Positions 1-15,467 of a stretch of 40,227 bases of DNA are shown piece by piece. Made by a program: the position numbers and the translations under genes. This DNA is from a virus: the UHGV virus genome UHGV-0148877; one strand, given 5' to 3'. Positions within the stretch are counted from its first letter, which is position 1; each line of letters starts with the position of its first letter. The notes under the pieces are model-generated. The model was not told where the DNA came from. It was given only the letters and a program-made list of their open reading frames with translations, and ran no database searches.

Positions 1-483
1 CTATCTGGTCAGGGTGTCGTACTGTTTTTCACAGACTCTTCCGGCTTCGGCTGCCCGGTCAGCATACTCTGCCAGTTGTCTGTTTCTCTCGAGAGATTTA
101 CTGAGCACGTCGGCAAGCAAAACTCCGGTGTCTGCGGCTGACGTCCCAGCGCCGACAATGGCGTTATACTGCCTGAGCTGCTCACGGATGGCAACGAGCT
201 GTTGCTGCAACCGGCCAGCGCGAGCGGCAGCATCAAGAGCATCATTGCGCGCCTGGTCGATCCTCTGCTGCGCTTCACGTTCATTGATCGCTTTCTCCTG
301 TTCGTAGTGCTGACGAATTCTCTCATCTTCGGTTTTGCGGTCTTCTTTCGCCTGCGCATACCCGGCGTCGTACTGACGACTGCCGTGTACACTCCAGGCA
401 ACAACTCCTGATATGACCAGAACAGCAAGCACCGCCATGATAATCAACTGTTTCCGGTATGCTTTTACGAATGCCCAGATCAT
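1..483 (-). CDS. Rz-like inner-membrane spanin (i-spanin)
   Basis: 160 aa; N-terminal TM segment ([17 protein letters not shown]) followed by a charged coiled-coil-like region; ATG at 483 overlaps the endolysin stop (ATGA); contains an embedded +1-frame lipoprotein ORF. Stop codon is at positions 1-3. Confidence 0.6.
9..284 (-). CDS. Rz1-like outer-membrane spanin lipoprotein, embedded in the Rz gene
   Basis: Alternative frame inside Rz; ATG at 284 gives [26 protein letters not shown], i.e. a basic n-region, hydrophobic core and LAGC lipobox, then a Pro/Ser-rich mature part. Embedded architecture as in lambda Rz/Rz1. Confidence 0.55.
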   Translation of the reverse strand: MNVKRSRGSTRRAMMLLMLPLALAGCSNSSLPSVSSSGSITPLSALGRQPQTPEFCLPTCSVNLSRETDNWQSMLTGQPKPEESVKNSTTP

Positions 484-1109
484 ACCGCCAGCACCTTACT
501 GGCATTGATGTATCGCGCGCGCCGGTCGTCGATGCCGTTCCGGCCACCATTGATAATCAGAGTTACACGTGCAATATCGCCGGTATACTTCATGCATCCT
601 TTGCTGGCAAAGAACCACGCCGCGCTACGAGCCGCGTATTCGTCCTGCGCCAGCAGTTCAGGACTCTCCAGCAGGTCAACCTTAAGACCGTTTCCACAGT
701 CACGATAGTTATTCAAACCGGTAACCTGGATAAGCCCGCGCCCACGGTAGTTCCAGCCATCACCAGGGGCATTGTTCCCCATGCGTTTGCTGTACACCAG
801 ATTGGCAATCGCTCTCTGGCGCTCAAGTGGCAATGGTGGTTCGCCTGCACGTCGCCCCAATGCGTTGGCCTGTCCCTGAGTGAGACGCCCAGCCCGAACA
901 AAGTTAGCCAGTCCGCTGACGCTGTAGTTGAAATTCTCCTGCAACCGGGTGAAGCCTCCAGACTCATGCCCGACCTGAGCAATAAACATAGCCTGATCTT
1001 CTGGTTTGCTGATACCAAACTCTTTCATCGCAGAAGTTATATGCGAGAACCAGCGTGCGGCCAGTGCCTCGCTGATACCAGCAGCTCGCTGGAATTGTTT
1101 AATCTCCAT
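480..1109 (-). CDS. Endolysin, GH19 (chitinase-like) family
   Basis: 209 aa; motifs [24 protein letters not shown] and INGG recalled as typical of GH19-type phage endolysins; ATG with GAGG RBS; last gene before Rz/Rz1. Confidence 0.85.
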
Positions 1110-2000: not shown

Positions 2001-2297
2001 TCAAATAGAGAAATAAACACAAAAACAAAAAACAACAGGAACAGCAAAATCCAACAGACTTCCCACATCCCACACGCGTGGATCAAAACCTCCCCACCAC
2101 GGCATGTTGATACGTTTCCCTTTCCCAAACTTTTCTATCCAGCGATATTCTGCCTGGGTGTGTTCACGCGCAATGAAGAACGTACAACCGGCTATCGCAC
2201 CGTAAGCCCAGTTTCCGGTAAAAATACCAACCAGTACCTGAGCCACAAAAGCGCAAAGCGAGTGAAGAAATGGAGTGACATCAATGCTCTTAATCAT
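2001..2297 (-). CDS. Small membrane protein translationally coupled to the tailspike gene
   Basis: 98 aa; ATG overlaps the tailspike stop (ATGA); two hydrophobic segments; function unknown. Confidence 0.45.
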   Translation of the reverse strand: MIKSIDVTPFLHSLCAFVAQVLVGIFTGNWAYGAIAGCTFFIAREHTQAEYRWIEKFGKGKRINMPWWGGFDPRVWDVGSLLDFAVPVVFCFCVYFSI

Positions 2298-4483
2298 GAA
2301 ACTTCCCCATTGGTTGAAAATATGGCTCCTCCAACGCCAAGTGTATTTCGTGTTGTGCTCAACCTCAGAGGGCTGGAGTCAGAATTAGAATATCCTGTAG
2401 CAGAAATAAAAGATCCTCCACTAATAGTCAACTGCGGAACATCGGCTATATCTGAATAAGTTCTGTCAGCAACAGTATTATTTATAGCCACATATGATCC
2501 AAAAAAACTTCTTATTGTTTGGTTTTTAACTTTACTTCCTTCAATGGTTATCCTACTACCACAGTCGGCAATAAATCCTGAATCTGCATCCAGCGTTGCA
2601 TTCATAAAAGAAGCTTCAGCTCTCTCTACATCAATCCATCTAATATCTTTTGTGGGATTTGCACCAAATACATGACAAATATTAGAGTTAAACCTTACAC
2701 CATCTTGGAGGTGCATTAATTTTTTTATATCTGTACCCCATAGCCTTGGAAAATTAACAGATGCTCCTGCATGGCAATCAAATCCCAGCTCAGCCCCTGA
2801 GATATCTACAGCCTTTCCTGAAATAACAGCACCAGTGTCTGCATTAACGGCTGTTCCACAATTGCGCATATCATTACCAGCAACATCAACGCAACCCGCA
2901 CCATCAATACGCACACCAAGTGCACATCCATAAAAACCTTTTTCAATATTTGGTTCAAGGACTTTACCACTTGTTTCTGCATCACTTTCTTCAACGTCAT
3001 GTCGTCTTGCATCAACATATGCTGTATGAATGCAGGTTAATCCACGATATGAGCAATGTATAGTTTTATGGTCGCGTATATTAACATTTGAACCATCTCT
3101 TACATTCCATCCTATATAACAATAGCTTGCACTTGACCCCTGAAAATCTGCTTTAACATTATAAATACAATTAACTGACGCAACCGTACTCTCTGTGCAC
3201 CGTTCAAACTTGCTTACAGGCATTGATGCCTTGACATTATTTACCAGTTGCAGGGAAGAGTATCTGCTATAAGAAAAATCACATACGTAATACCCTTCTG
3301 GCATATATGCAGCAACACTTTCCTCATCAGGAGCACATCCGGTATGATATGCACTAATTTTTGCACCAAAACTACCATGAATTCCAACGTAGAACTTTCG
3401 AGCACCTGAATACGGATAGAAATTAAGTTCAGCTTTTTGAGTTACAATAAATGCACAAACATCGCTATCATCTCTATTTTCTTCGATCTGAATAGCAAAT
3501 ACAGGACTTTTTGCTGCATCGCAAATGTAAAATAAATACTTGTATTCGTAATACGTTCTAACGATTTTAGTAAACAAACGAGTGTCAGAGAAAACCACTG
3601 AGTCTTCTGATGTTATTTTAATCCAAGACAAATCAACACCTGAACTGAATTCAATTTGATAGTTGATAATATGCCCGGTCTTAATTCTTATTTCGCAGAA
3701 AGCATTACCACCATCCCACATAGGTCTCATTGACTGGGCTGCAATGATTGCATCTTTGAGTGTAGGGTAATCACCCCATTCGCCAACAGTAATAACAAAA
3801 GTATAATATGAGTTAAAAACAGCGGCATTTTTGCCTTTGGATATCAACTCCTTAATCATAAAAATATTATCTTCGTAATCACAAGGAGAAATTATATCCC
3901 TCATTTTGCTTTGAAATGTTCGTTGTCTTGCCCCGCTTCCTGACGGTATAAACCAACCAAAACCACCAACAACCCCGGCGATTGCAGCATCGACATAATT
4001 ACGCATTGAGCGATTATTTACAGCGTCCTGCTCAAATGATGGATCTGCAAGGTTAGAAATTTTGTTTTGCTTTGCATCGTAATATTTTGCAAGCAAAGAT
4101 GGTTTCATCAATGCACGTCTGAACCACCCAAAACATCGCTGGATCAGCATCGTCAGGTAGTCAAATGCATCTTCATGAACTTCGGGGAAAAATTTTCCCT
4201 GATTGCGAAGATCAGTCTCCTGCACCACATCAAGCACACGCTCTATCGTAATTCGCCAGCCAGCAGCAAGCGGAGACGGAAGAACCACAGAACCGCCACT
4301 ATAAGTGCCCGCCCCAGTTACCGTATAACCGGTATCCAGAACCAATTCTGTTACGTTCCCGTTCAGGTCAGACACCTGAACAACCAGGTCTGATTTTTTG
4401 AAAATACGAAAAGTATACGGAAACGATGTCGTAACGCCGTTACCTGTGTATTCGTTGTGGTCAACTTCGGTTGAGACCGTCAT
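2294..4483 (-). CDS. Tailspike / receptor-binding protein
   Basis: 729 aa; N-terminus MTVSTEVDHNEYTGNGVTTSFPYTF resembles the conserved particle-binding domain of podovirus tailspikes; rest is Gly/Ser/Asn-rich as in beta-helix depolymerases; ATG with GGAG RBS; the C-terminal two thirds is visibly more AT-rich than flanking DNA. Confidence 0.8.
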   Translation of the reverse strand: MTVSTEVDHNEYTGNGVTTSFPYTFRIFKKSDLVVQVSDLNGNVTELVLDTGYTVTGAGTYSGGSVVLPSPLAAGWRITIERVLDVVQETDLRNQGKFFPEVHEDAFDYLTMLIQRCFGWFRRALMKPSLLAKYYDAKQNKISNLADPSFEQDAVNNRSMRNYVDAAIAGVVGGFGWFIPSGSGARQRTFQSKMRDIISPCDYEDNIFMIKELISKGKNAAVFNSYYTFVITVGEWGDYPTLKDAIIAAQSMRPMWDGGNAFCEIRIKTGHIINYQIEFSSGVDLSWIKITSEDSVVFSDTRLFTKIVRTYYEYKYLFYICDAAKSPVFAIQIEENRDDSDVCAFIVTQKAELNFYPYSGARKFYVGIHGSFGAKISAYHTGCAPDEESVAAYMPEGYYVCDFSYSRYSSLQLVNNVKASMPVSKFERCTESTVASVNCIYNVKADFQGSSASYCYIGWNVRDGSNVNIRDHKTIHCSYRGLTCIHTAYVDARRHDVEESDAETSGKVLEPNIEKGFYGCALGVRIDGAGCVDVAGNDMRNCGTAVNADTGAVISGKAVDISGAELGFDCHAGASVNFPRLWGTDIKKLMHLQDGVRFNSNICHVFGANPTKDIRWIDVERAEASFMNATLDADSGFIADCGSRITIEGSKVKNQTIRSFFGSYVAINNTVADRTYSDIADVPQLTISGGSFISATGYSNSDSSPLRLSTTRNTLGVGGAIFSTNGEVS

Positions 4484-6916: not shown

Positions 6917-7096
6917 ATGCGAAACGAAAAATTGCAGATGCGTAGAGCGCAAGCTGCCGCAAGACGTTCTTTCAATGGAAGCGTAGAGTGCGTAAAAGTT
7001 ACTATGACAAAAGATCACGCAAGTCGCGTATCCCGCGCTTTCTTTGATTCTCGTAACAATAAGGAAAATTATGAGTTCGTCTGCGTCGCAGAATGA
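6917..7096 (+). CDS. Small basic protein, candidate antitoxin (below the ORF-track cut-off)
   Basis: 59 aa (MRNEKLQMRRAQAAARRSF...), ATG with GAGGTAAT RBS; overlaps the start of the downstream toxin-like gene by 26 nt, the usual antitoxin-toxin arrangement. Confidence 0.3.
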   Translation: MRNEKLQMRRAQAAARRSFNGSVECVKVTMTKDHASRVSRAFFDSRNNKENYEFVCVAE

Positions 7097-7616
7097 TAAA
7101 AATCAAATTGTCAGATATAAGGGTCGAGTATTGCATACGCAAAATTTCTCGGCCCTTTGTGCATCTGATCTTGAGCTGAAGAAAGTATCTGATGCCTTTA
7201 CCCAGTATTGGAAAACGGGATACCATCCATCTCTTGGTAAAGATGCTGCATTTGCTCGTCCGACAGAAATGCTTAAACTAAATGTCAGGCATACTCATGT
7301 CGATAACCAAGACTATATTCCAGAAGATAGTGATAAAAAACACACTGGTAAAAAATCATCTTGGGATGCATGGAAAAAAATAGCGTCTGTGCAAGTAAAA
7401 TGCATACCAACAAGTAATTGCTTTTTAGTTTATTCGGTAAATCACAATCGTGATGCGCTGGTTATGTTTTTTGTTGACGCAGATGCCCACAACATAACTG
7501 AGCAAGAAGAGTTTAAAGAGGCAGCAATCACTATCAGTTATCAATTCTTTGAGAAAACAAAAACAGAACCAATGCCTTTAGAAGAAGATCTTTTTTCTGA
7601 TAAATGGAAGGAATAA
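7071..7616 (+). CDS. YafO-like toxin-family protein (putative ribosome-dependent mRNA interferase)
   Basis: 181 aa from the ATG at 7071 (AAGGAAAA RBS); segments DAFTQYWKTGYHPSLGKDAAF, LKLNVRHTHV and CFLVYSVNHNRDALVMFFV resemble the conserved blocks I recall for YafO-family toxins; AT-rich; family assignment is from memory. Confidence 0.45.
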   Translation: MSSSASQNDKNQIVRYKGRVLHTQNFSALCASDLELKKVSDAFTQYWKTGYHPSLGKDAAFARPTEMLKLNVRHTHVDNQDYIPEDSDKKHTGKKSSWDAWKKIASVQVKCIPTSNCFLVYSVNHNRDALVMFFVDADAHNITEQEEFKEAAITISYQFFEKTKTEPMPLEEDLFSDKWKE

Positions 7617-7711
7617 GCCCGCGCCGCGGGCTTTTTTGTGGACGAAACAAAAGTCAGTGCTACACTCATTGACGCCACATTGAGGTGGATTATAGATGGA
7701 AATTTTTCACA

Positions 7712-7873
7712 ATGAAAAAAGCATTTGCTGCACTGTTCGTTTTGTTGTCTCTGGTAGCTTCAACTCAGGCCTTTGCCGGTCGTTGTCAGCACGACAGCGA
7801 TACTGCCGCTGACGGCTCCCGCTGCGGTGGGCGTTCTGCGGATTCCCGTCCGGGCGGCGGTGGCATTCGTTAA
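7712..7873 (+). CDS. Small secreted peptide (signal peptide plus about 31-aa Gly/Arg/Asp-rich mature part with 2 Cys)
   Basis: MKKAFAALFVLLSLVASTQAFA then GRCQHDSDTAADGSRCGG...; classical signal peptide with AFA-G cleavage site; followed at once by a hairpin terminator. Confidence 0.4.
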   Translation: MKKAFAALFVLLSLVASTQAFAGRCQHDSDTAADGSRCGGRSADSRPGGGGIR

Positions 7874-7900
7874 AAACAAGGCCGCGAAAGCGGCCTGTTT
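7872..7900. terminator. Bidirectional intrinsic terminator
   Basis: AAGGCCGC-GAAA-GCGGCCT hairpin with A-run upstream and T-run downstream, between convergent genes 7712-7873 (+) and 7903-8754 (-). Confidence 0.6.
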
Positions 7901-7902
7901 GA

Positions 7903-8754
7903 TCACTGTGCAGTTTTCGCTGATCGATTTTCAGCTCTAAATTCAAGAACCGTTTCAATATTTCTTTCCTTCAGCATATCAATAACATTTTTATTCATTT
8001 GACTATCACTGGTTAATAACTGGTAAACGTTGCTTCTCTCTTTATCAGAGTTTTCTTTAACAGCTGCTTTGCATGCCAAATGCTTATTGAAATTTTCTAC
8101 ATCGCTAGTACAGGAATTTACGGCTGCTGATGAAATATCAGACGCTGAAGAAACACCGTCATCCAAACGTTTTATAGCATTTTCTATACATGAGTTAAGG
8201 GAATAAACGACAACTGAGCGATACCCTTCAGACGCACACCATTCTAAATTTCTTGAAGGATCGAGTGGTTTTACTTCGCTGGATTGAATTAACTTGTCAA
8301 AAACTGACTTATATTCAATCTGTTTTTTATCTATAGCCCATACTTCAGTAGCTGATTTATAATTCCCCGTATGCCTATTAACATCAAATCCATGTTTTAT
8401 AAGCAAATCTGCCCATGAAAGATTTATTGATTCATTGTTATGAGGCCATTTTCCTGTCAGAACCGCCCCCATAGACCCCATATATCCGCCATATGATGGT
8501 ATAGCACCATGGCTCAGTAACTTCTCTGCAACCACAGGGCAATTAATTACATAAGAGGCGTAAAGCCCATTCCATAAAGCCCCTCTATAGTAATCGCCAC
8601 GATTAGGTTCTTTTAAGTCGATAGCCTTTGATAATTGTTCGCACGTTTTGCATGCATCAAAGTTATCCTTATTGCATTGCAATGAACTGGCAGCTGTAGG
8701 ATTTACAGAGACTATTGAAAGCACTATGCCAAAAAACAAATTTATTTTTTTCAT
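7903..8754 (-). CDS. Secreted Cys-containing protein of unknown function
   Basis: 283 aa; N-terminal signal peptide MKKINLFFGIVLSIVSVNPTAASS; about 8 Cys; strongly AT-rich relative to the structural genes; ATG 1 nt after the stop of the 1129-aa protein gene. Confidence 0.6.
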   Translation of the reverse strand: MKKINLFFGIVLSIVSVNPTAASSLQCNKDNFDACKTCEQLSKAIDLKEPNRGDYYRGALWNGLYASYVINCPVVAEKLLSHGAIPSYGGYMGSMGAVLTGKWPHNNESINLSWADLLIKHGFDVNRHTGNYKSATEVWAIDKKQIEYKSVFDKLIQSSEVKPLDPSRNLEWCASEGYRSVVVYSLNSCIENAIKRLDDGVSSASDISSAAVNSCTSDVENFNKHLACKAAVKENSDKERSNVYQLLTSDSQMNKNVIDMLKERNIETVLEFRAENRSAKTAQ

Positions 8755-8755
8755 C

Positions 8756-11700
8756 CTATTTCATCTGCTCTTCAACTTTATTTAGTAATGGTGATATCGC
8801 CCACAGATTCTGAAAAGGTAGCATTTTACGGACAGCGTGGGTTTGCTGGCTGTCAAATTCTCCGTTAAGTACACCATTTGCAACCGTCGCGGCATCACCG
8901 CCAAGATCAAAGGTAGGACCAAGTAAAGCACCAATAGCATTACGACTCTGAAACCTTGATACCGGAGGCGCACCAAACATCGCGCCAAGACCAAACCTAC
9001 CGCCGCTTATGTTCTCAACGGTATTCAGCGGCTCAGAGAGCCAGCCAAGCATTCCGCCCCGGTCGATCCCCTCTTTCACAAGGTTATTCCAGCTGTAGTC
9101 GATATCGCGACCGCTTAACTTCTGTTTCATCATATAGACCATTGAGCCAAGCGCAATCGTGCCAAGCGCACCAAGATAGAATGCAGCATCGCCCTGCTGG
9201 ATACCAGATACCAGCACCCTGTTATGCTGTGCGAAGATAAACGTTTTGAACTGCGTGATCATCTTCCAGCCTTCTTTACTAAAAAACAGCGGTGTATCAC
9301 CTACGCCAGGCGTTACAATCACTGAGTCTACATCTTTCAGCACTGCAGACTGGAAAATCTCTCTAGCGAAACGGTCATCCCACAGATGACTATGCCCGGT
9401 TAACAGCCCGTCCATATCCTCTCCGTGCTTCCCGAATTGCTCCCCGATTCGGCGCAGAACATCTTCATTGATGCCGACCTGTGCCATCTTCCGCATTTCA
9501 CTTTTGGAGAGCGTGCCACCAGCAGAAACTTGGCGAGCCGCGTCAAGTATCCTCGACTGCACTATCATCCCAGACCATGATTTAAGTGCGCTGTTCCACT
9601 GATTCATCAGCGTCCAGTTACCGAATTTCTGCGTCATCCAGTTCAGACCTCGCTCAGCGGCGCTTCTCCGGCTATAGGGGTCAGTAAGATCCGCTATAGC
9701 CTTTGTACGCGTAGACAGGACATAATCAAGCCCAACTGCCATTTCTCGCAAATCCCTGGTTGCAATTTTCACTGAGTCCATATTTTTAAGCATGCTTACC
9801 ATTGGTCCGAGAGATTTTCTCAGGCCATGCTGCATCATCGGTCGCATCAGATCAGTTGCAGCGGAGACAGTCATTCCACCAAGCAAACGGAGGAAGTTAA
9901 TATTCCTAGCAACTCGCCCGGCACGAACAAAGAAACTGCGTGGATCTTGAGGTGCACCGTAAGTACCAAGCAGTCGATCACGCATAGCCGTAATATCCCT
10001 AATATCAGCCTCCCGTTGCTTCTCAAGAACTGCACGTCGTTTAGGTGTTTTAGCCTCTTTTATTAGCCGGGTATATTCCTCACTAACCTGACGGATTTGC
10101 TCCCCCATATCTTTACGGCCAAACTGCGCAGTCAGCTCAATTTCTGGTGCCACCTGCCGGAGATAACTTTCCATGATGTAGTTAACATCTGATTCAAGAA
10201 AATCTTCTATACGCTCATCAGGAATAAGCAGCGTTCTGCTTTTAGTGAAACCAGCCCGACCAACGAGTCTCTCTGGGATAATATCGGCTGGTACAAGCCC
10301 GGAAGGTGCGCCTATTATTTTATTCACGATCTCGTCAGCAGCGTCCTCTGCTTCCTCTCGGGATAGAGGCTCCATCTGCTTCAGTGCTCGCTCGCGGCTT
10401 GCATTCAGCCTTGTGGTTGAATTTGCCCGTTTTTGCAGTCGGCGAAGCTCAGAACGATATTTCCGTGGATTATCCAGCAACTCCATATGGCGCTGATAGA
10501 CAGGAAGCTCACTCTTTGCCTGCGCTATATCATCAAGGCGTGTTTTAAGGTCAGAGCTTTCTTTCATCATTCTTGCCTGAAGTTTTTCTGATGAAGTCTC
10601 GGCCAACTCTTTTTCTATTCTTGTAAGACGCGCCTGTGTGTCAGTCTCCTGAGATATAAGCTTATTTCGTTTATCCAGTTCTTCCATGAGTAGAATTTTT
10701 TTACCAGACCATTTCTCCGCTTCAGCGATTTCACTAGCGAGAGCATCAGCGCGCGGTGCTGATTCCTCTGCAGTTTTTAGCAATGAATTTATCTTTTCAA
10801 TTCGCTGACCTGCTTTGTCAGCACCTTTGGCACTAATCACTTGTATCCAGTTGGCAATTCGCCCTCTGAATTCAGTGCGGTCGGAAAGTATCTTATCGAA
10901 CTTATAAATGCGGGGAAGATAACTCTTCGCCGTCACGACATCGATATCCTCAGGAAGGATCCCCAATTCCTGCATACGGGCTTTTGTGGTCTCAAAAATG
11001 GGGCGGATTCTGGCGGCTGCTTGTGAAACCTCAGGAATATCACTCTGATCACCACGGCGCATAGCCATGCCAACAGCTTCATTGAAATCAATAAAGTTCA
11101 TCCTCTTCACGCCGCGGGCGCTGACAGATTTGCTGTACTGCTGGTAAGCATCACGAGTAGCTTCCATCTGCTTATAAAGCATGGCGTCGTATTGCTTAAT
11201 CTTAGTCTCGACTGCCGTAAACGTAGCCAACCCCTCATCATTTTTGGCGAAGAAATAGTTATTTTCGGCAAGCTGCTGGTTAATCTGACGGGAGACAAGA
11301 GATGGTGATTGCGCCAAGCGGCCAGCAGGAGTGACACTCAACGTTTTGTTAGCAAGTCCAAGTCCAGCGAGCTGTTCCTGATCGAGTGTGGTATTGAAAA
11401 CCTGAGCTGCACCAATGCTTTGAGGAGAATCCATACCTCGCAAATGATTACCTACTGAGTTAACCACTGCCTCGCGCGCGCTAGGTCCAGCAAGTAGCTG
11501 TGCACCAGCACCAAGGATCCCACCAACGAGAGCATCAACAACAACGTTCGATACGCTCTCCATCGGTGAGCGAGCTTCCTGAGTGGCCTGTAATGCGGCT
11601 TCTGATACTCCCCCACCAGCAGCATTCGCCAGGGCAAAACGCCCTGCCGTCTCAGCAATACTTCCTCCACGCGCTACCGCCCCTACAGGGATGAACATTG

Positions 11701-12145
11701 CAGCCACATTAACCGGGTCTATCATTCCCATTGCTAAGCTTGAAATAGTACCAGCACCACCCATTTCAGATAGATATTCTCTATCTGTTCTTTGCTTATC
11801 GATTCGATGTTTAATTGCCATTGTTTCTTCATGCGAACCGGAGTTGATAAACGAATCTGCAAAATCTTCATAGCCTTTAATATCTGCTGCATCGTTATCA
11901 AATGGGTTATATCCTTCAACCCTGTCAAACTGACTGAAAGGAGCACTGGCAATAAAGCTACCCAGCGTGTTATCTATACGAAATGCTGCTTGTCTAGACC
12001 TTTGAACGCGTTGATCACTGGTAAATGGGTTCACAGCAGAAAGCAAAGAAGGTGTTTCCATATAGAAATTACTGTCATCAGGTGCTGCTATTTGCTGAAT
12101 ATCCTCGCCAAGCAACTCTTTAGGATCCTGTTCATATATCGGCAT
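8756..12145 (-). CDS. Large internal virion / ejection protein
   Basis: 1129 aa, largest of three consecutive big proteins after the tail-tube genes, the arrangement used for podovirus internal core (ejection) proteins; long coiled-coil-like central region. Confidence 0.65.
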   Translation of the reverse strand: MPIYEQDPKELLGEDIQQIAAPDDSNFYMETPSLLSAVNPFTSDQRVQRSRQAAFRIDNTLGSFIASAPFSQFDRVEGYNPFDNDAADIKGYEDFADSFINSGSHEETMAIKHRIDKQRTDREYLSEMGGAGTISSLAMGMIDPVNVAAMFIPVGAVARGGSIAETAGRFALANAAGGGVSEAALQATQEARSPMESVSNVVVDALVGGILGAGAQLLAGPSAREAVVNSVGNHLRGMDSPQSIGAAQVFNTTLDQEQLAGLGLANKTLSVTPAGRLAQSPSLVSRQINQQLAENNYFFAKNDEGLATFTAVETKIKQYDAMLYKQMEATRDAYQQYSKSVSARGVKRMNFIDFNEAVGMAMRRGDQSDIPEVSQAAARIRPIFETTKARMQELGILPEDIDVVTAKSYLPRIYKFDKILSDRTEFRGRIANWIQVISAKGADKAGQRIEKINSLLKTAEESAPRADALASEIAEAEKWSGKKILLMEELDKRNKLISQETDTQARLTRIEKELAETSSEKLQARMMKESSDLKTRLDDIAQAKSELPVYQRHMELLDNPRKYRSELRRLQKRANSTTRLNASRERALKQMEPLSREEAEDAADEIVNKIIGAPSGLVPADIIPERLVGRAGFTKSRTLLIPDERIEDFLESDVNYIMESYLRQVAPEIELTAQFGRKDMGEQIRQVSEEYTRLIKEAKTPKRRAVLEKQREADIRDITAMRDRLLGTYGAPQDPRSFFVRAGRVARNINFLRLLGGMTVSAATDLMRPMMQHGLRKSLGPMVSMLKNMDSVKIATRDLREMAVGLDYVLSTRTKAIADLTDPYSRRSAAERGLNWMTQKFGNWTLMNQWNSALKSWSGMIVQSRILDAARQVSAGGTLSKSEMRKMAQVGINEDVLRRIGEQFGKHGEDMDGLLTGHSHLWDDRFAREIFQSAVLKDVDSVIVTPGVGDTPLFFSKEGWKMITQFKTFIFAQHNRVLVSGIQQGDAAFYLGALGTIALGSMVYMMKQKLSGRDIDYSWNNLVKEGIDRGGMLGWLSEPLNTVENISGGRFGLGAMFGAPPVSRFQSRNAIGALLGPTFDLGGDAATVANGVLNGEFDSQQTHAVRKMLPFQNLWAISPLLNKVEEQMK

Positions 12146-14892
12146 TATTTGCCCCCTGCGTATATATTGCTCGGAAGGTAATTGGCTGAACCATAACCGA
12201 ATGGTTTGGTCAGATCTGGAGGAGTATATCCATCTTTATTGCTGAACTGCGGCAGCGGATTGCCTTCTCTCCGCACTCTAGCCTCATCAACACGCTGTTG
12301 CTGGAACTGAATGGTTTGCCTGTACATTGGAGATGTCAGCTGATCCGGCTTGAAACGAACAGGGAGACCATTTTCTCCAATATAATTTCTCGGTTCTATC
12401 GCTCCGTTTGCGTCAGGCTGTAAAACCATAACAGCATAACTCCTATCCCTTGCCGTAAGGCCATCAGAAACAAGTATTAAGTCCGTATCACTGCGAGGAC
12501 CGCCAAAGGATTTTGATTTAAGCTCGCGTTTTTCCTGCTCCCACTGCCCCTGTATCCAGTTACCAGCACCATTATTTACTCCGTACAATGCCTCAGGTGC
12601 ATACTTCATAACCTCTGCTTTGCCATTAACTGTAGAAACTCCCCAGGTGGTTCTGATCATGGCATTGGTCATTTTCTCAGCCTGTTCTGCATCGCCACCT
12701 GTCTGTACAAAGTTAGCATCGTAAATTGTCTGGTAATCTCGCTGATAGGCCGCATTTGATTTTCCTGGATCGGTAATATCCGGAGACCACGAACCAAAGG
12801 AAGTCAGACTGCTGGCGTTATTTTGTGCAGCAGTTGCCCTCGCCGCGACATATTTTTTGTCTCGCATGGCAGTGGAAAGCATCTGTTTCATTCGGTCATC
12901 CTGTTGGAACACCTGGCTGTAAGCCATATCAACAGCCTTATCCTCCGGCACGCCAGCGCGGGAATAATCGTAAACCTTGCCGTAAAATGCCATCGTACTT
13001 TTATCAAGTGTTGCCGCTGCCGCCGGATTATTATCGAATAACTGACCGTAGAATTTTGCCATCGGGACAACCAGCGCAGGATCTCTTGATGTTGCTCCAC
13101 TGTTAAGCATTGTTTTAACCTGAGTTGGTATCATGCCGCTTTTAGTTGTGGCGGTGACCAGTGTATTGATGCTCTGCGGATCAGATATGGAAAACGAAGG
13201 CGCGATATCCTGCGCGAAATAACGGTCTACCGCTGCCTGATTGTTTTTGTCGTTAGGGTCCAGCGGGAAGTTATTTTGCATTGAAGACACGAACCTGTTT
13301 CTTCCCTGCTGAATCTCCCACTCCCTATCCATCTCTTTAAATTTGGCCTGCATTTTCTCCCAGCGTTGCTGGTTAGCTGCAAATCCAGGAGCATTTGGAT
13401 CCTGTGGACGTAAACGTTCAAGAATGTCTTGTCGTCCTTCTGGAGTGAGGTCTTTAGCGGCACCAATGACACCTCCATATTGTATCTGCGCCTGCATATC
13501 CTTCCACTTCATAGCGCCAATGCGCGGACCATTGGCCCGGATAAAATCGTCCTCAGAAGGTAACTTCTCAGGTTTCAATCCTTCATCAAGGGCTGAATAT
13601 GCATCTTTAACTACGGTGCTAAGCTGGTCCGCATACTGCTGGCGGTACTGATTTCTCAGCTCATTAGCCTGCCTCAATGCCTGTATTTGCATTTGAGGGC
13701 TCATAGCGTCAAATGCCGCATTGCCCGTATAACGCTTAGGTGAATCAAGGTTAGTTAGACCAAGGGCTGCCGAGATACCAGTTTCAAGCTGTTCGGTGCT
13801 ATAAGGCATACTGCCATTTTCGTGTTTAATAATCCCAGCACATAAAGCAGCTAGTGTCTTTGGGTTAGAGATATCAAGCTGATCATTCTCCCCAACACCA
13901 AGCTCACTACACAATGCCCTAATATAAGCATCAGTATTATTACCATCACTAGCCGGAGCATAGCGATTAACAATCTCGCTAACGGTGTCATAGCCTTGAC
14001 GCTGGTAAGACAACATATTTTTACCCAACGCGCGGATTCCATGCTCAGGGGTAGCAAACGTTGCAAAACGTCCATCGCTACCGATCTGACCTTCCCACGG
14101 GTTAGATTTGCTCGCTTCAATATTACCAGGGTTATTATTACGTAAACCACGAGCATCCAATGAATTACCATGTGATATTGCACGACTCACACCATCAAGA
14201 TCCCCTGGCTCTCCATTAACCTGAAGAAACTCGTTGTATTTTTGAGCGATATTTCCTATCCATGCTTGCTGCCCCATTTGTTCCTTGAGCTGAGTTTTCT
14301 GCTGAACACGCCACTCATCAGGAAGCCCATGCGCATCAGCGTATTGATCAATAGATTCAAATCGCTGCTTGGCTAAATCGACAAATGCTTGGTTATCGCT
14401 ATATAGCCCCGCAGACTGAGTGACAGCCAATGCATTTCCTGACAAATACGTTTGATCTTGGAATTGCTGAAACTGCCCAACTTCATATCGACGTGCCTGA
14501 TTGTAATAAGACTGCATAGACTGCTGGAGTTGAAAGGATAATTTATTCCTTTCCTCACTTTCAGGAATTGAGCCTAATAATGCCTGAGCCCTTTCCTGCA
14601 TATTTTTCATAACAGCGTCACTCTGACCAAGAGCGTTTTTACCCTGTTTAGAAATCAGCCCATTTTCAGGGTTGTTAATCTGGTCATCTGCAAATTGGTT
14701 AAATTGCAGTAACGCCTCCTGGGCCATAGCAACATTCGCTTTCTGCCTAGCTTCACCATATGCCACCGCATACTGATCTGCGACATTCGCCAGCACCTGA
14801 CCTGCTTGAGGAACATCGAAGGTCTGAAAACCACCGGTTTGCACACCACGACTTTGCACCTGGCGTCCGGATGTAGTAGGAACAACAGGCAT
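12145..14892 (-). CDS. Internal virion protein with putative peptidoglycan-hydrolase domain
   Basis: 915 aa; contains GLRNNNPGNIEASKSNPWEGQ...FATFATPEHGIRALGKNML, recalled as a virion-associated muralytic-domain signature; start overlaps the downstream gene stop. Confidence 0.65.
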   Translation of the reverse strand: MPVVPTTSGRQVQSRGVQTGGFQTFDVPQAGQVLANVADQYAVAYGEARQKANVAMAQEALLQFNQFADDQINNPENGLISKQGKNALGQSDAVMKNMQERAQALLGSIPESEERNKLSFQLQQSMQSYYNQARRYEVGQFQQFQDQTYLSGNALAVTQSAGLYSDNQAFVDLAKQRFESIDQYADAHGLPDEWRVQQKTQLKEQMGQQAWIGNIAQKYNEFLQVNGEPGDLDGVSRAISHGNSLDARGLRNNNPGNIEASKSNPWEGQIGSDGRFATFATPEHGIRALGKNMLSYQRQGYDTVSEIVNRYAPASDGNNTDAYIRALCSELGVGENDQLDISNPKTLAALCAGIIKHENGSMPYSTEQLETGISAALGLTNLDSPKRYTGNAAFDAMSPQMQIQALRQANELRNQYRQQYADQLSTVVKDAYSALDEGLKPEKLPSEDDFIRANGPRIGAMKWKDMQAQIQYGGVIGAAKDLTPEGRQDILERLRPQDPNAPGFAANQQRWEKMQAKFKEMDREWEIQQGRNRFVSSMQNNFPLDPNDKNNQAAVDRYFAQDIAPSFSISDPQSINTLVTATTKSGMIPTQVKTMLNSGATSRDPALVVPMAKFYGQLFDNNPAAAATLDKSTMAFYGKVYDYSRAGVPEDKAVDMAYSQVFQQDDRMKQMLSTAMRDKKYVAARATAAQNNASSLTSFGSWSPDITDPGKSNAAYQRDYQTIYDANFVQTGGDAEQAEKMTNAMIRTTWGVSTVNGKAEVMKYAPEALYGVNNGAGNWIQGQWEQEKRELKSKSFGGPRSDTDLILVSDGLTARDRSYAVMVLQPDANGAIEPRNYIGENGLPVRFKPDQLTSPMYRQTIQFQQQRVDEARVRREGNPLPQFSNKDGYTPPDLTKPFGYGSANYLPSNIYAGGK

Positions 14893-15467
14893 CAGTAACC
14901 TCCTATTTTGAATCGGGAGTCAGAATTCATAAAACCTGAGTTAGATAACATTGGCGTCCCACCACTAGATGTACTTCCTTTAGAGAACGGACTCCACGTC
15001 CCACCAAACATCTGGTACGCACCGTATGCCTTCAGAGGCGCAGTGAGCAATGTTGTTGCTGCTCCCACATTCCCCTGTTTACGGGCTGAACTGGCTTCTG
15101 CTTTATAGTTGGCAGCCTGAACCTGATAACCGTAAGCCTCGCGTTGCGCGTTATTCACCGTCGTCAGAGAATCAAGAGCGCCAAACTGGGCAGTGTCGCC
15201 AAATATATCCAGCGCGTTACCTGTAGATAAATCAGCGCCGGTAGCCCCCATTGTCGCCGCCTGTGTACCAAGCCGCTGTCGGGTCTCTCTGCGCCGTTGC
15301 TCAGCTTCAGCGTTACCTCTGTTTATTGCATCATTTGCCTGAGCAGTGGCTATATCTGCGTTCGCTTCTGCAACCTTCGAGGCATACTTTCCCTGTTGGT
15401 ACTGGGTGTATGCCTGAATGCCACTCATGGCGAGCATTGCGCCACCAGCAATAACCGGATCGCACAT
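14892..15467 (-). CDS. Internal virion protein (small core protein)
   Basis: 191 aa, Ala/Gly/Gln-rich; position between tail-tube gene and the large ejection proteins. Confidence 0.5.
   Translation of the reverse strand: MCDPVIAGGAMLAMSGIQAYTQYQQGKYASKVAEANADIATAQANDAINRGNAEAEQRRRETRQRLGTQAATMGATGADLSTGNALDIFGDTAQFGALDSLTTVNNAQREAYGYQVQAANYKAEASSARKQGNVGAATTLLTAPLKAYGAYQMFGGTWSPFSKGSTSSGGTPMLSNSGFMNSDSRFKIGGY

Follow-up and report, generated by a model that had tools for sequence, protein, structure and literature searches.

An exported ankyrin-like accessory protein of an epsilon15-like prophage and its possible role as an inhibitor of Enc34-type muralytic domains

The virus genome UHGV-0148877, a stretch of 40,227 nucleotides (hereafter the window), carries on its minus strand at 7903..8754 a gene for a 283-amino-acid (aa) protein (WP_000723561.1, phrog_6118) that comprises a signal peptide, an ankyrin-like domain and a helical domain. 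With high confidence, the product is an exported, two-domain, ankyrin-like accessory protein, and the neighbouring 53-aa gene encodes an independent small secreted peptide. Sequence and gene neighbourhood point, tentatively, to a function for the larger protein as a periplasmic inhibitor of Enc34-type (PHA02564) muralytic domains that would act in a Spackle-like manner in superinfection exclusion or immunity. In the proposed mechanism, the 283-aa protein would be exported by the Sec pathway, acquire up to four disulfides and remain in the periplasm. Its ankyrin-like N-terminal domain, from a family that appears to partner Enc34-type peptidoglycan hydrolases, would bind and block the enzyme domain. 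Once the internal proteins of a related phage had entered the periplasm of an infected or lysogenic cell, their Enc34-type domain would be neutralised and local wall digestion halted, and the ejection conduit could then not cross the wall. The C-terminal helical domain would form a second, independent periplasmic module. The same activity might also guard against type VI secretion system (T6SS) effectors with an Enc34-type domain, a compatible second role.

An exhaustive profile search recovered 68 relatives among 1.8 billion representatives, and with their help two modules can be told apart in the 283-aa protein; either one is also found alone as a small signal-peptide protein. The N-terminal module (residues 25–165; 8260..8682, minus strand), a predicted binder of Enc34-type muralytic domains, contains four cysteines and is a very divergent ankyrin-repeat domain. 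It is built of stacked helix-turn-helix repeats of ~33 residues and is structurally similar to solved ankyrin-repeat proteins. Its sequence profile (A4) matched Ankyrin-1 in the PDB at E=5.4e-7, together with many DARPins, and the library search also retrieved multi-repeat ankyrin proteins. The Pfam Ank models stayed below their gathering score, and a search at E<=1 found no Pfam family for either the 283-aa protein or its stand-alone homologs. Ankyrin folds are protein-binding scaffolds. A first-pass annotation of the DNA had stated that neither the 283-aa nor the 53-aa protein resembles a known family; that statement fails for both, the N-terminal half of the former being a divergent ankyrin and the latter belonging to phrog_14503, which is named and widespread.

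Stand-alone homologs of the N-terminal module were found in Bdellovibrionota, Oligoflexia, other Proteobacteria and soil metagenomes. They share 37–55% identity and all carry signal peptides; 22 alignment columns, including the WNGLY and WPH motifs, are invariant between them and the phage proteins. Loci were located with a nine-sequence subset, since an alignment of 31 N-domains proved too diverse for the purpose. An Enc34-type gene directly adjoins the stand-alone homolog in eight distinct loci out of about 18 with enough flanking sequence to be informative. The partner genes encode the motif RNNNPGNI...RWAP...HENG and lack a signal peptide. Five of the eight (L099, L103, L106, L192/L193 and L195/L196; L numbers denote loci) have a ~178-aa stand-alone Enc34-type enzyme as the partner, and three (L014/L016, L015 and L105) have a ~220-aa fusion of the Enc34-type domain to DUF3892. 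The arrangements include start and stop codons that overlap, in either order, and convergent genes. An exported binder beside an enzyme that lacks a signal peptide is the standard effector–immunity layout. The L106 pair lies 1.3 kb from a ClpV gene, whose product has an N-domain matching the ClpV1 structure 4uqw at E=1.6e-21. At a ninth locus (L013), a prophage tail module, the Enc34-type domain lies 3 kb off. A literature search on the NNPGN motif returned nothing relevant.

The DUF3892 fusions span ~220–260 aa across four loci (L015, 5267–5926; L014, 6398–7183; L016, 4839–5498; L105, 141–833), again without signal peptides. In these Bdellovibrionota-type genomes, the pairing of the fusion with an exported ankyrin-like protein suggests an uncharacterised effector–immunity or self-protection pair in predatory bacteria.

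A domain of the proposed target type is present in the same phage. The 915-aa ejection protein in the gp15 position (12145..14892, minus strand; phrog_1044, phrog_992, phrog_873), encoded two genes upstream of the 283-aa gene, contains the only Enc34-type domain in the window, at residues ~247–395 (13708..14154, minus strand), with the motif RNNNPGNI ... RYAP ... HENG. A hidden Markov model of the domain matched residues 255–395, and a phmmer search of the PDB with the domain returned the internal protein Gp29 (9vvp_L, E=1.5e-36) and the Enc34 endolysin (7Q47, E=1.3e-16). The catalytic glutamate is retained, with IIKHENGS aligning to IIRHENGS, and the aromatic residue (RYAP versus RWAP) and tyrosine (AYI) are also kept. 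PHROGs labels the Enc34-type family as endolysin or tail-injection transglycosylase, and the muralytic activity of the Enc34 domain and the role of its catalytic glutamate have been shown experimentally (PMC8943055).

Across epsilon15-like phages, the gp15-position ejection protein carries interchangeable muralytic modules. The Enc34-type module is found in the window, in phiV10 and in Serratia, Morganella, Klebsiella and Providencia relatives. A soluble lytic transglycosylase (SLT)/GH23 module, with the motif VESG...GKYQLMPGT...AAYNWGMGN, is found in TL-2011b gp37 (L084, 7111–9828) and in 21 of 80 close relatives.

The 283-aa gene is rare and its position is constant. Only 22 homolog clusters were found in 5.8e9 proteins, all of 270–283 aa and all from Enterobacterales (E. 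coli, Klebsiella, Serratia, Morganella and Providencia). One of 50,697 phage records carries the gene, as do 106 of 5,426 E. coli genomes and 12 of the 80 close relatives from IMG/VR. In every case examined, this accessory gene (moron) lies directly past the ~1130-aa last ejection-protein gene of an epsilon15-like prophage; in the window it closes the late ejection-protein operon at its 3′ end.

Other phages fill the same slot differently. In phiV10 it holds gp21, a 46-aa protein with two transmembrane segments (L083, 10346–10486), and in sister phages a 98-aa protein with three (L110, 11470–11766). Elsewhere it is occupied by a ~134-aa lipoprotein with the C-domain motif SSASDIAEGAVFEC (L148, 17339–17761) or by a 152-aa protein (L111, 17157–17612). 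A Klebsiella relative has a homolog of the Rap1a family of T6SS immunity proteins there, together with a weakly C-domain-like protein (L011, 6238–7094). The site behind the final ejection gene is a hot spot for cargo directed to the envelope, and variable, envelope-located slot proteins of this kind are the usual signature of exclusion or immunity cargo. A bolder extension, which we regard as possible but doubtful, is that the slot is a dedicated cassette for 'anti-ejectosome' factors. The 283-aa protein would then be a fusion of two periplasmic immunity modules: an ankyrin-like one, drawn from T6SS or predator effector–immunity pairs, that blocks Enc34-type domains, and a second aimed at another part of the ejection machinery. 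On this extension it would be the first known Spackle-like inhibitor from beyond the T-even phages and would define the first immunity family for Enc34/PHA02564 wall enzymes.

Inhibition of an incoming ejection protein is favoured by the company that the gene keeps. An Enc34-type ejection protein accompanies each full-length ortholog examined, in E. coli, Klebsiella (L197), Serratia (L006), Morganella (L003), Providencia (L199) and the lineage of L078/L107. Among the 80 relatives, the 283-aa gene is found in 12 of 57 phages with an Enc34-type module versus none of 21 with an SLT-type module (Fisher p=0.03, uncorrected for shared ancestry). The first-pass annotation had named entry exclusion and lysozyme inhibition as typical roles of periplasmic phage cargo; the evidence runs in that direction, the predicted target being an Enc34-type muralytic domain.

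The same association bears on an alternative that we consider unlikely, in which the protein is an orphan T6SS immunity factor. The inhibition would be the same, but the lysogen would be shielded from the Enc34-type T6SS effectors of its neighbours and not from phages. This alternative is consistent with the stand-alone pair near a ClpV gene, with the Rap1a-family homolog in the slot of the Klebsiella relative, and with the report of a T6SS effector that has an Enc34-like domain and is accompanied by immunity proteins bearing signal peptides (PMC13340143). Anti-T6SS cargo would, however, have no reason to track the Enc34-type ejection protein, and no lysogenic promoter was detected upstream of the gene. 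The T6SS and phage-exclusion roles are not mutually exclusive.

The endolysins of the lineages that carry the gene vary between GH19, Enc34-type and M15 enzymes. In the Morganella prophage, a 158-aa Enc34-type protein encoded directly past two holin genes (L003, 12247–12723) serves as the endolysin, and the endolysin of the Providencia relative is an M15 peptidase. The window has a GH19 endolysin (480–1109, minus strand), and for this reason inhibition of the phage's own endolysin was rejected as a function. A related proposal, that the 283-aa protein is a lysis-timing buffer, namely a late periplasmic anti-endolysin that captures muralytic enzyme leaking out before holin triggering, is very improbable. 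Co-transcription with the late genes and the Enc34-type endolysin of the Morganella relative would suit such a buffer; yet the gene is kept although the endolysin is GH19 in the window and in Klebsiella and M15 in Providencia, and it lies outside the lysis cassette.

Several observations weigh against an inhibitor of Enc34-type domains as the explanation. Roughly one in two stand-alone homologs lacks an Enc34-type neighbour, and the association within the epsilon15-like phages is not independent of their phylogeny. The Enc34-type domain is present in phiV10, which lacks the 283-aa gene. The C-terminal domain is left unexplained by inhibition. Both signal peptides were judged by hydropathy and a small-x-small heuristic, and no sigma70-like promoter that might serve in a lysogen, where exclusion would matter most, was found within ~1.8 kb upstream of the gene. 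Ankyrin partners can also activate an enzyme rather than inhibit it. The immunity protein Tli, for example, does both (PMC11470151).

Some of these points favour a different reading that we would likewise not expect to be correct: the protein may be an ankyrin-type periplasmic binder whose target is unrelated, for instance a receptor, a host-interaction factor or a protein of the host envelope, and the neighbour association would then not be transferable to it. Ankyrin domains are easily retargeted, the identity of the phage protein to the stand-alone homologs is only 30–45%, and its C-terminal domain has no known partner, which can be added to the homologs that lack an enzyme neighbour. Against an unrelated target stand the invariant columns common to the phage and stand-alone proteins, and the co-occurrence with Enc34-type ejection proteins across five genera and one unassigned lineage.

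The C-terminal domain (residues 166–283; 7906..8259, minus strand) is helical, is predicted with a pLDDT (predicted local distance difference test) score above 90, contains four cysteines and represents an undescribed family. Its motif can be written C..I..LDDGVSSASDISSAAV..C, or C-x4-I-x2-LDDG[IV]S[PS]ASDI[AS]. No match to it was found in Pfam or the PDB, and its profile had zero matches to PDB sequences at E<=10. Comparison with a Klebsiella Rap1a homolog of the Rap1a/Tai4 family (PF18602) gave an hhalign probability of 0.1%, and Pfam gave no match to that family. At the level of the whole proteins, Pfam, NCBIfam and PADLOC scans returned no match for either the 53-aa or the 283-aa product, and a Foldseek search of viral structures returned nothing at E<=0.001. 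The known lysozyme-inhibitor families Ivy, MliC/PliC, PliG and LprI/DUF1311 matched neither protein in Pfam or NCBIfam at E<=1, and neither sequence nor fold homology to T4 Spackle was detected for the 283-aa protein. Repeating the word-indexed homolog search with mixed alignment added nothing.

The 53-aa and 283-aa products both look Sec-exported, in agreement with the first-pass annotation. Each has a lysine-rich n-region, a hydrophobic h-region and a small-x-small cleavage site, and the 9-residue Kyte–Doolittle maxima of the two signal peptides are 3.04 and 2.84, respectively. A hydropathy scan found no further hydrophobic or transmembrane segment in either protein. In the 283-aa protein, the predicted signal peptide covers residues 1–23 (8686..8754, minus strand), with cleavage near TAA↓S, AAS↓S or ASS↓L, as placed by the n/h/c-region heuristic. 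In its orthologs, the cleavage-type motif always stops one or two residues ahead of the first invariant cysteine (ALA↓KC, IAG↓QC). The export pattern, which is that of a protein secreted through Sec and cleaved by signal peptidase I (SPase I), is kept in the orthologs although the sequence is not. A lipoprotein was ruled out, as there is no lipobox. The eight cysteines already noted by the first-pass annotation (27, 35, 38, 72, 173, 189, 215 and 228) are invariant in 16 orthologs down to 39% identity and are split four per module, which fits a periplasmic protein.

The open reading frame (ORF) runs from an ATG at 8754 to a stop at 7903 on the minus strand, and its coordinates and those of the 53-aa ORF had been given exactly, both ORFs being real and both annotated in RefSeq. 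The gene is AT-rich (GC content 0.37, or 0.29 at third codon positions, versus 0.48 in the adjoining 1129-aa gene and in the window), and its ATG lies 1 nt past the TAG of the 1129-aa gene (TAGGATG). Because of this 1-nt gap, the lack of any terminator found between the two genes and the lack of a sigma70-like site upstream, the 283-aa gene is probably read through from the late operon, as previously suggested; this is its sole evident mode of expression. Downstream, a bidirectional intrinsic terminator common to both convergent genes lies at 7879..7896, where the scan hit is on the minus strand. The hairpin has a predicted free energy of −17.5 kcal/mol (z = −5) and is kept in phiV10, whose annotation lists it as a terminator.

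The convergent 53-aa gene (WP_000708858.1; 7712..7873, plus strand), which runs from an ATG at 7712 to a TAA at 7873, is an independent accessory gene (moron). Its product consists of MKKAFAALFVLLSLVASTQAFA before and GRCQHDSDTAADGSRCGGRSADSRPGGGGIR after the predicted cleavage site (AFA↓G), and the mature peptide has 31 residues with two cysteines, as first described. The protein matches phrog_14503, a family common in prophages of Enterobacterales, over its full length (1–53 of 53; E=2.3e-40). Its homologs form 57 clusters in E. coli, Shigella, Klebsiella, Citrobacter, Cronobacter, Salmonella, Pectobacterium and Dickeya, under the NCBI name 'transmembrane anchored protein'. That label appears doubtful because the sole hydrophobic stretch is a cleavable-looking signal peptide. 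In the family alignment, the signal peptide varies freely and the core CQHDSDTAADGSRCGGRSADSRPGG is almost invariant. Over the 25-codon core, comparison with the Pectobacterium and Klebsiella copies gave a proportion of synonymous differences (pS) of about 0.72, which is saturated, and a proportion of nonsynonymous differences (pN) of 0.04–0.09, for a pN/pS of about 0.05–0.12. Since the differences in the core are almost all synonymous and the other two frames are unconserved, the gene is genuine and under strong purifying selection. Searches for its function found no family, structure or publication, including in the literature on 'transmembrane anchored protein' and prophages; Excalibur-like and Ivy-like readings of the peptide would be speculative.

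A 38-aa ORF that overlaps the 53-aa gene (7696–7812, plus strand) was considered and set aside as probably non-coding; stops fall in its frame in the Pectobacterium and Klebsiella homologs. It has the better Shine–Dalgarno sequence (GAGGTG, 8 nt upstream), and the 53-aa gene has no obvious one. The leader of the 53-aa gene contains a small hairpin, CCAC...GTGG (7671–7690, plus strand), downstream of a conserved GCTAnnCT −10-like element. The hairpin is kept in Klebsiella, and in Pectobacterium it reads CCGC...GCGG, a compensatory change.

The first-pass annotation had treated the two convergent genes together, implying a pair. About 500 of the 5,426 E. coli genomes carry the 53-aa gene, which accompanies all variants of the neighbouring slot and is also present in phages with SLT-type ejection proteins and beside the tail genes of an unrelated Pectobacterium prophage. 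As the distributions of the two genes differ, the 53-aa gene is independent of the 283-aa gene and the two are not a functional pair. We give hardly any credence to the remaining alternatives, a virion or ejection component on the one hand and a two-part system formed by the convergent genes on the other, even though the 283-aa gene ends an ejection-protein operon and the two genes are adjacent. The 53-aa gene is about five times commoner and is also found where the 283-aa gene is missing, among others in unrelated types of phage. That 50,696 of the 50,697 phage records and the majority of close relatives lack the 283-aa gene argues against a virion component, and Sec export with disulfides would be incompatible with packaging into a cytoplasmic capsid. 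An assignment to the ordinary virion components, which had been raised as a possible refutation of the original idea, was accordingly set aside.

The window represents a prophage of E. coli, a temperate podophage of the epsilon15/phiV10-like (Uetakevirus-type) group. Phage EC.W1-9 and many E. coli chromosomes match the region at 99.5% identity. The late operon of the prophage lies on the minus strand and runs from a T7_gp14-family gene (14892–15467, minus strand) through the 915-aa gene and the 1129-aa gene (8756..12145, minus strand) to the 283-aa gene. The 1129-aa protein belongs to phrog_342, 'internal virion protein with endolysin domain', and since it aligns to positions 192–1227 of that profile, it is, as far as the alignment indicates, a T7 gp16-like internal virion protein without the N-terminal lysin part. 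Its RefSeq name, 'DUF919 family protein', rests on a marginal 46-residue Pfam match of 23.4 bits (cut-off 21), and DUF919 is a baculovirus family. Beyond the 283-aa gene lies a variable accessory region with the 53-aa gene, a YafO-like gene and BRO-N, followed by the tailspike gene (2294–4483); a holin/GH19/DUF2514 lysis cassette forms the prophage end. The YafO-like ORF (7044–7616, plus strand; 190 aa) is AT-rich (GC 0.37), scores 23.2 bits against a Pfam cut-off of 25 and is named a type II toxin in RefSeq. It has its own terminator (7615–7633), and no antitoxin partner was noticed.

To our knowledge, T4 Spackle is the only understood phage inhibitor of a virion-borne wall hydrolase, and we know of little on how temperate podophages exclude their relatives after adsorption. 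If the proposed function is correct, the 283-aa protein would represent the first cognate inhibitor family for the recently defined Enc34/PHA02564 domain, of which use is made in endolysins, in ejection and tape-measure proteins and, it appears, in T6SS effectors. It would further provide a concrete case of phages and interbacterial weapons sharing one immunity-gene pool. In practice, lysogens of E. coli, Klebsiella, Serratia and Morganella would call for caution over Enc34-type enzybiotics and over the host range of therapeutic phages.

Periplasmic proteinaceous inhibitors of wall hydrolases that serve immunity or exclusion are a kind already known. What would be new, if true, is the combination of scaffold and target, its use by temperate podophages and an immunity family for Enc34-type enzymes; no publication describing any of these was found. 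T4 Spackle (gp61.3) is a periplasmic inhibitor of the gp5 tail lysozyme (PMC7677548). Like Spackle, the 283-aa protein is phage-encoded, small, helical and, by prediction, Sec-exported and disulfide-containing, and it is proposed to block an incoming virion-borne hydrolase and so cause superinfection exclusion. Unlike Spackle, it combines an ankyrin scaffold with a second domain, and its presumed activity would be directed at an Enc34-type domain and not at T4 lysozyme. Spackle is also an early gene, whereas the 283-aa gene is a late-operon accessory gene of a temperate podophage.

The closest parallels in scaffold come from bacteria. In Bdellovibrio, Bd3460 is a periplasmic ankyrin-repeat self-protection protein that binds and neutralises a DD-endopeptidase (PMC4686830). 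It too is an exported ankyrin-repeat protein directed against a secreted wall enzyme, and homologs of the N-terminal domain also occur in metagenome-assembled genomes of Bdellovibrionota. Bd3460 acts on DD-endopeptidases and the present family is paired with Enc34-type glycosidase-like domains; apart from the ankyrin fold, no specific sequence similarity was seen. Tli of E. cloacae is a periplasmic ankyrin-repeat immunity protein that binds and neutralises the lipase Tle (PMC11470151); it shares the use of an ankyrin scaffold for immunity and differs in having six repeats and a lipase target. With T6SS immunity in general, as represented by Tli, Rap1a/Tai4 (PF18602) and Tai5a of S. rhizophila (PMC13340143), the stand-alone homologs share the arrangement of an enzyme without a signal peptide beside an exported binder. 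Tai5a (WP_137189658.1, 18.5 kDa) is of the right size for these homologs. In contrast to such pairs, the 283-aa gene lies in a phage without an adjacent effector gene.

Its genomic setting recalls HK97 gp15 and Cor of phi80/N15, which we take to be envelope-located superinfection-exclusion morons in late operons. T5 Llp is likewise an envelope-located superinfection-exclusion protein (PMC9586334). The 283-aa protein has in common with these proteins that its gene is an accessory one set among genes for tail or ejection proteins, that the product is exported or membrane-located and that close relatives differ in it. HK97 gp15, Cor and Llp act on receptors or an inner-membrane step, whereas the 283-aa protein is proposed to target the ejection protein's muralytic domain.

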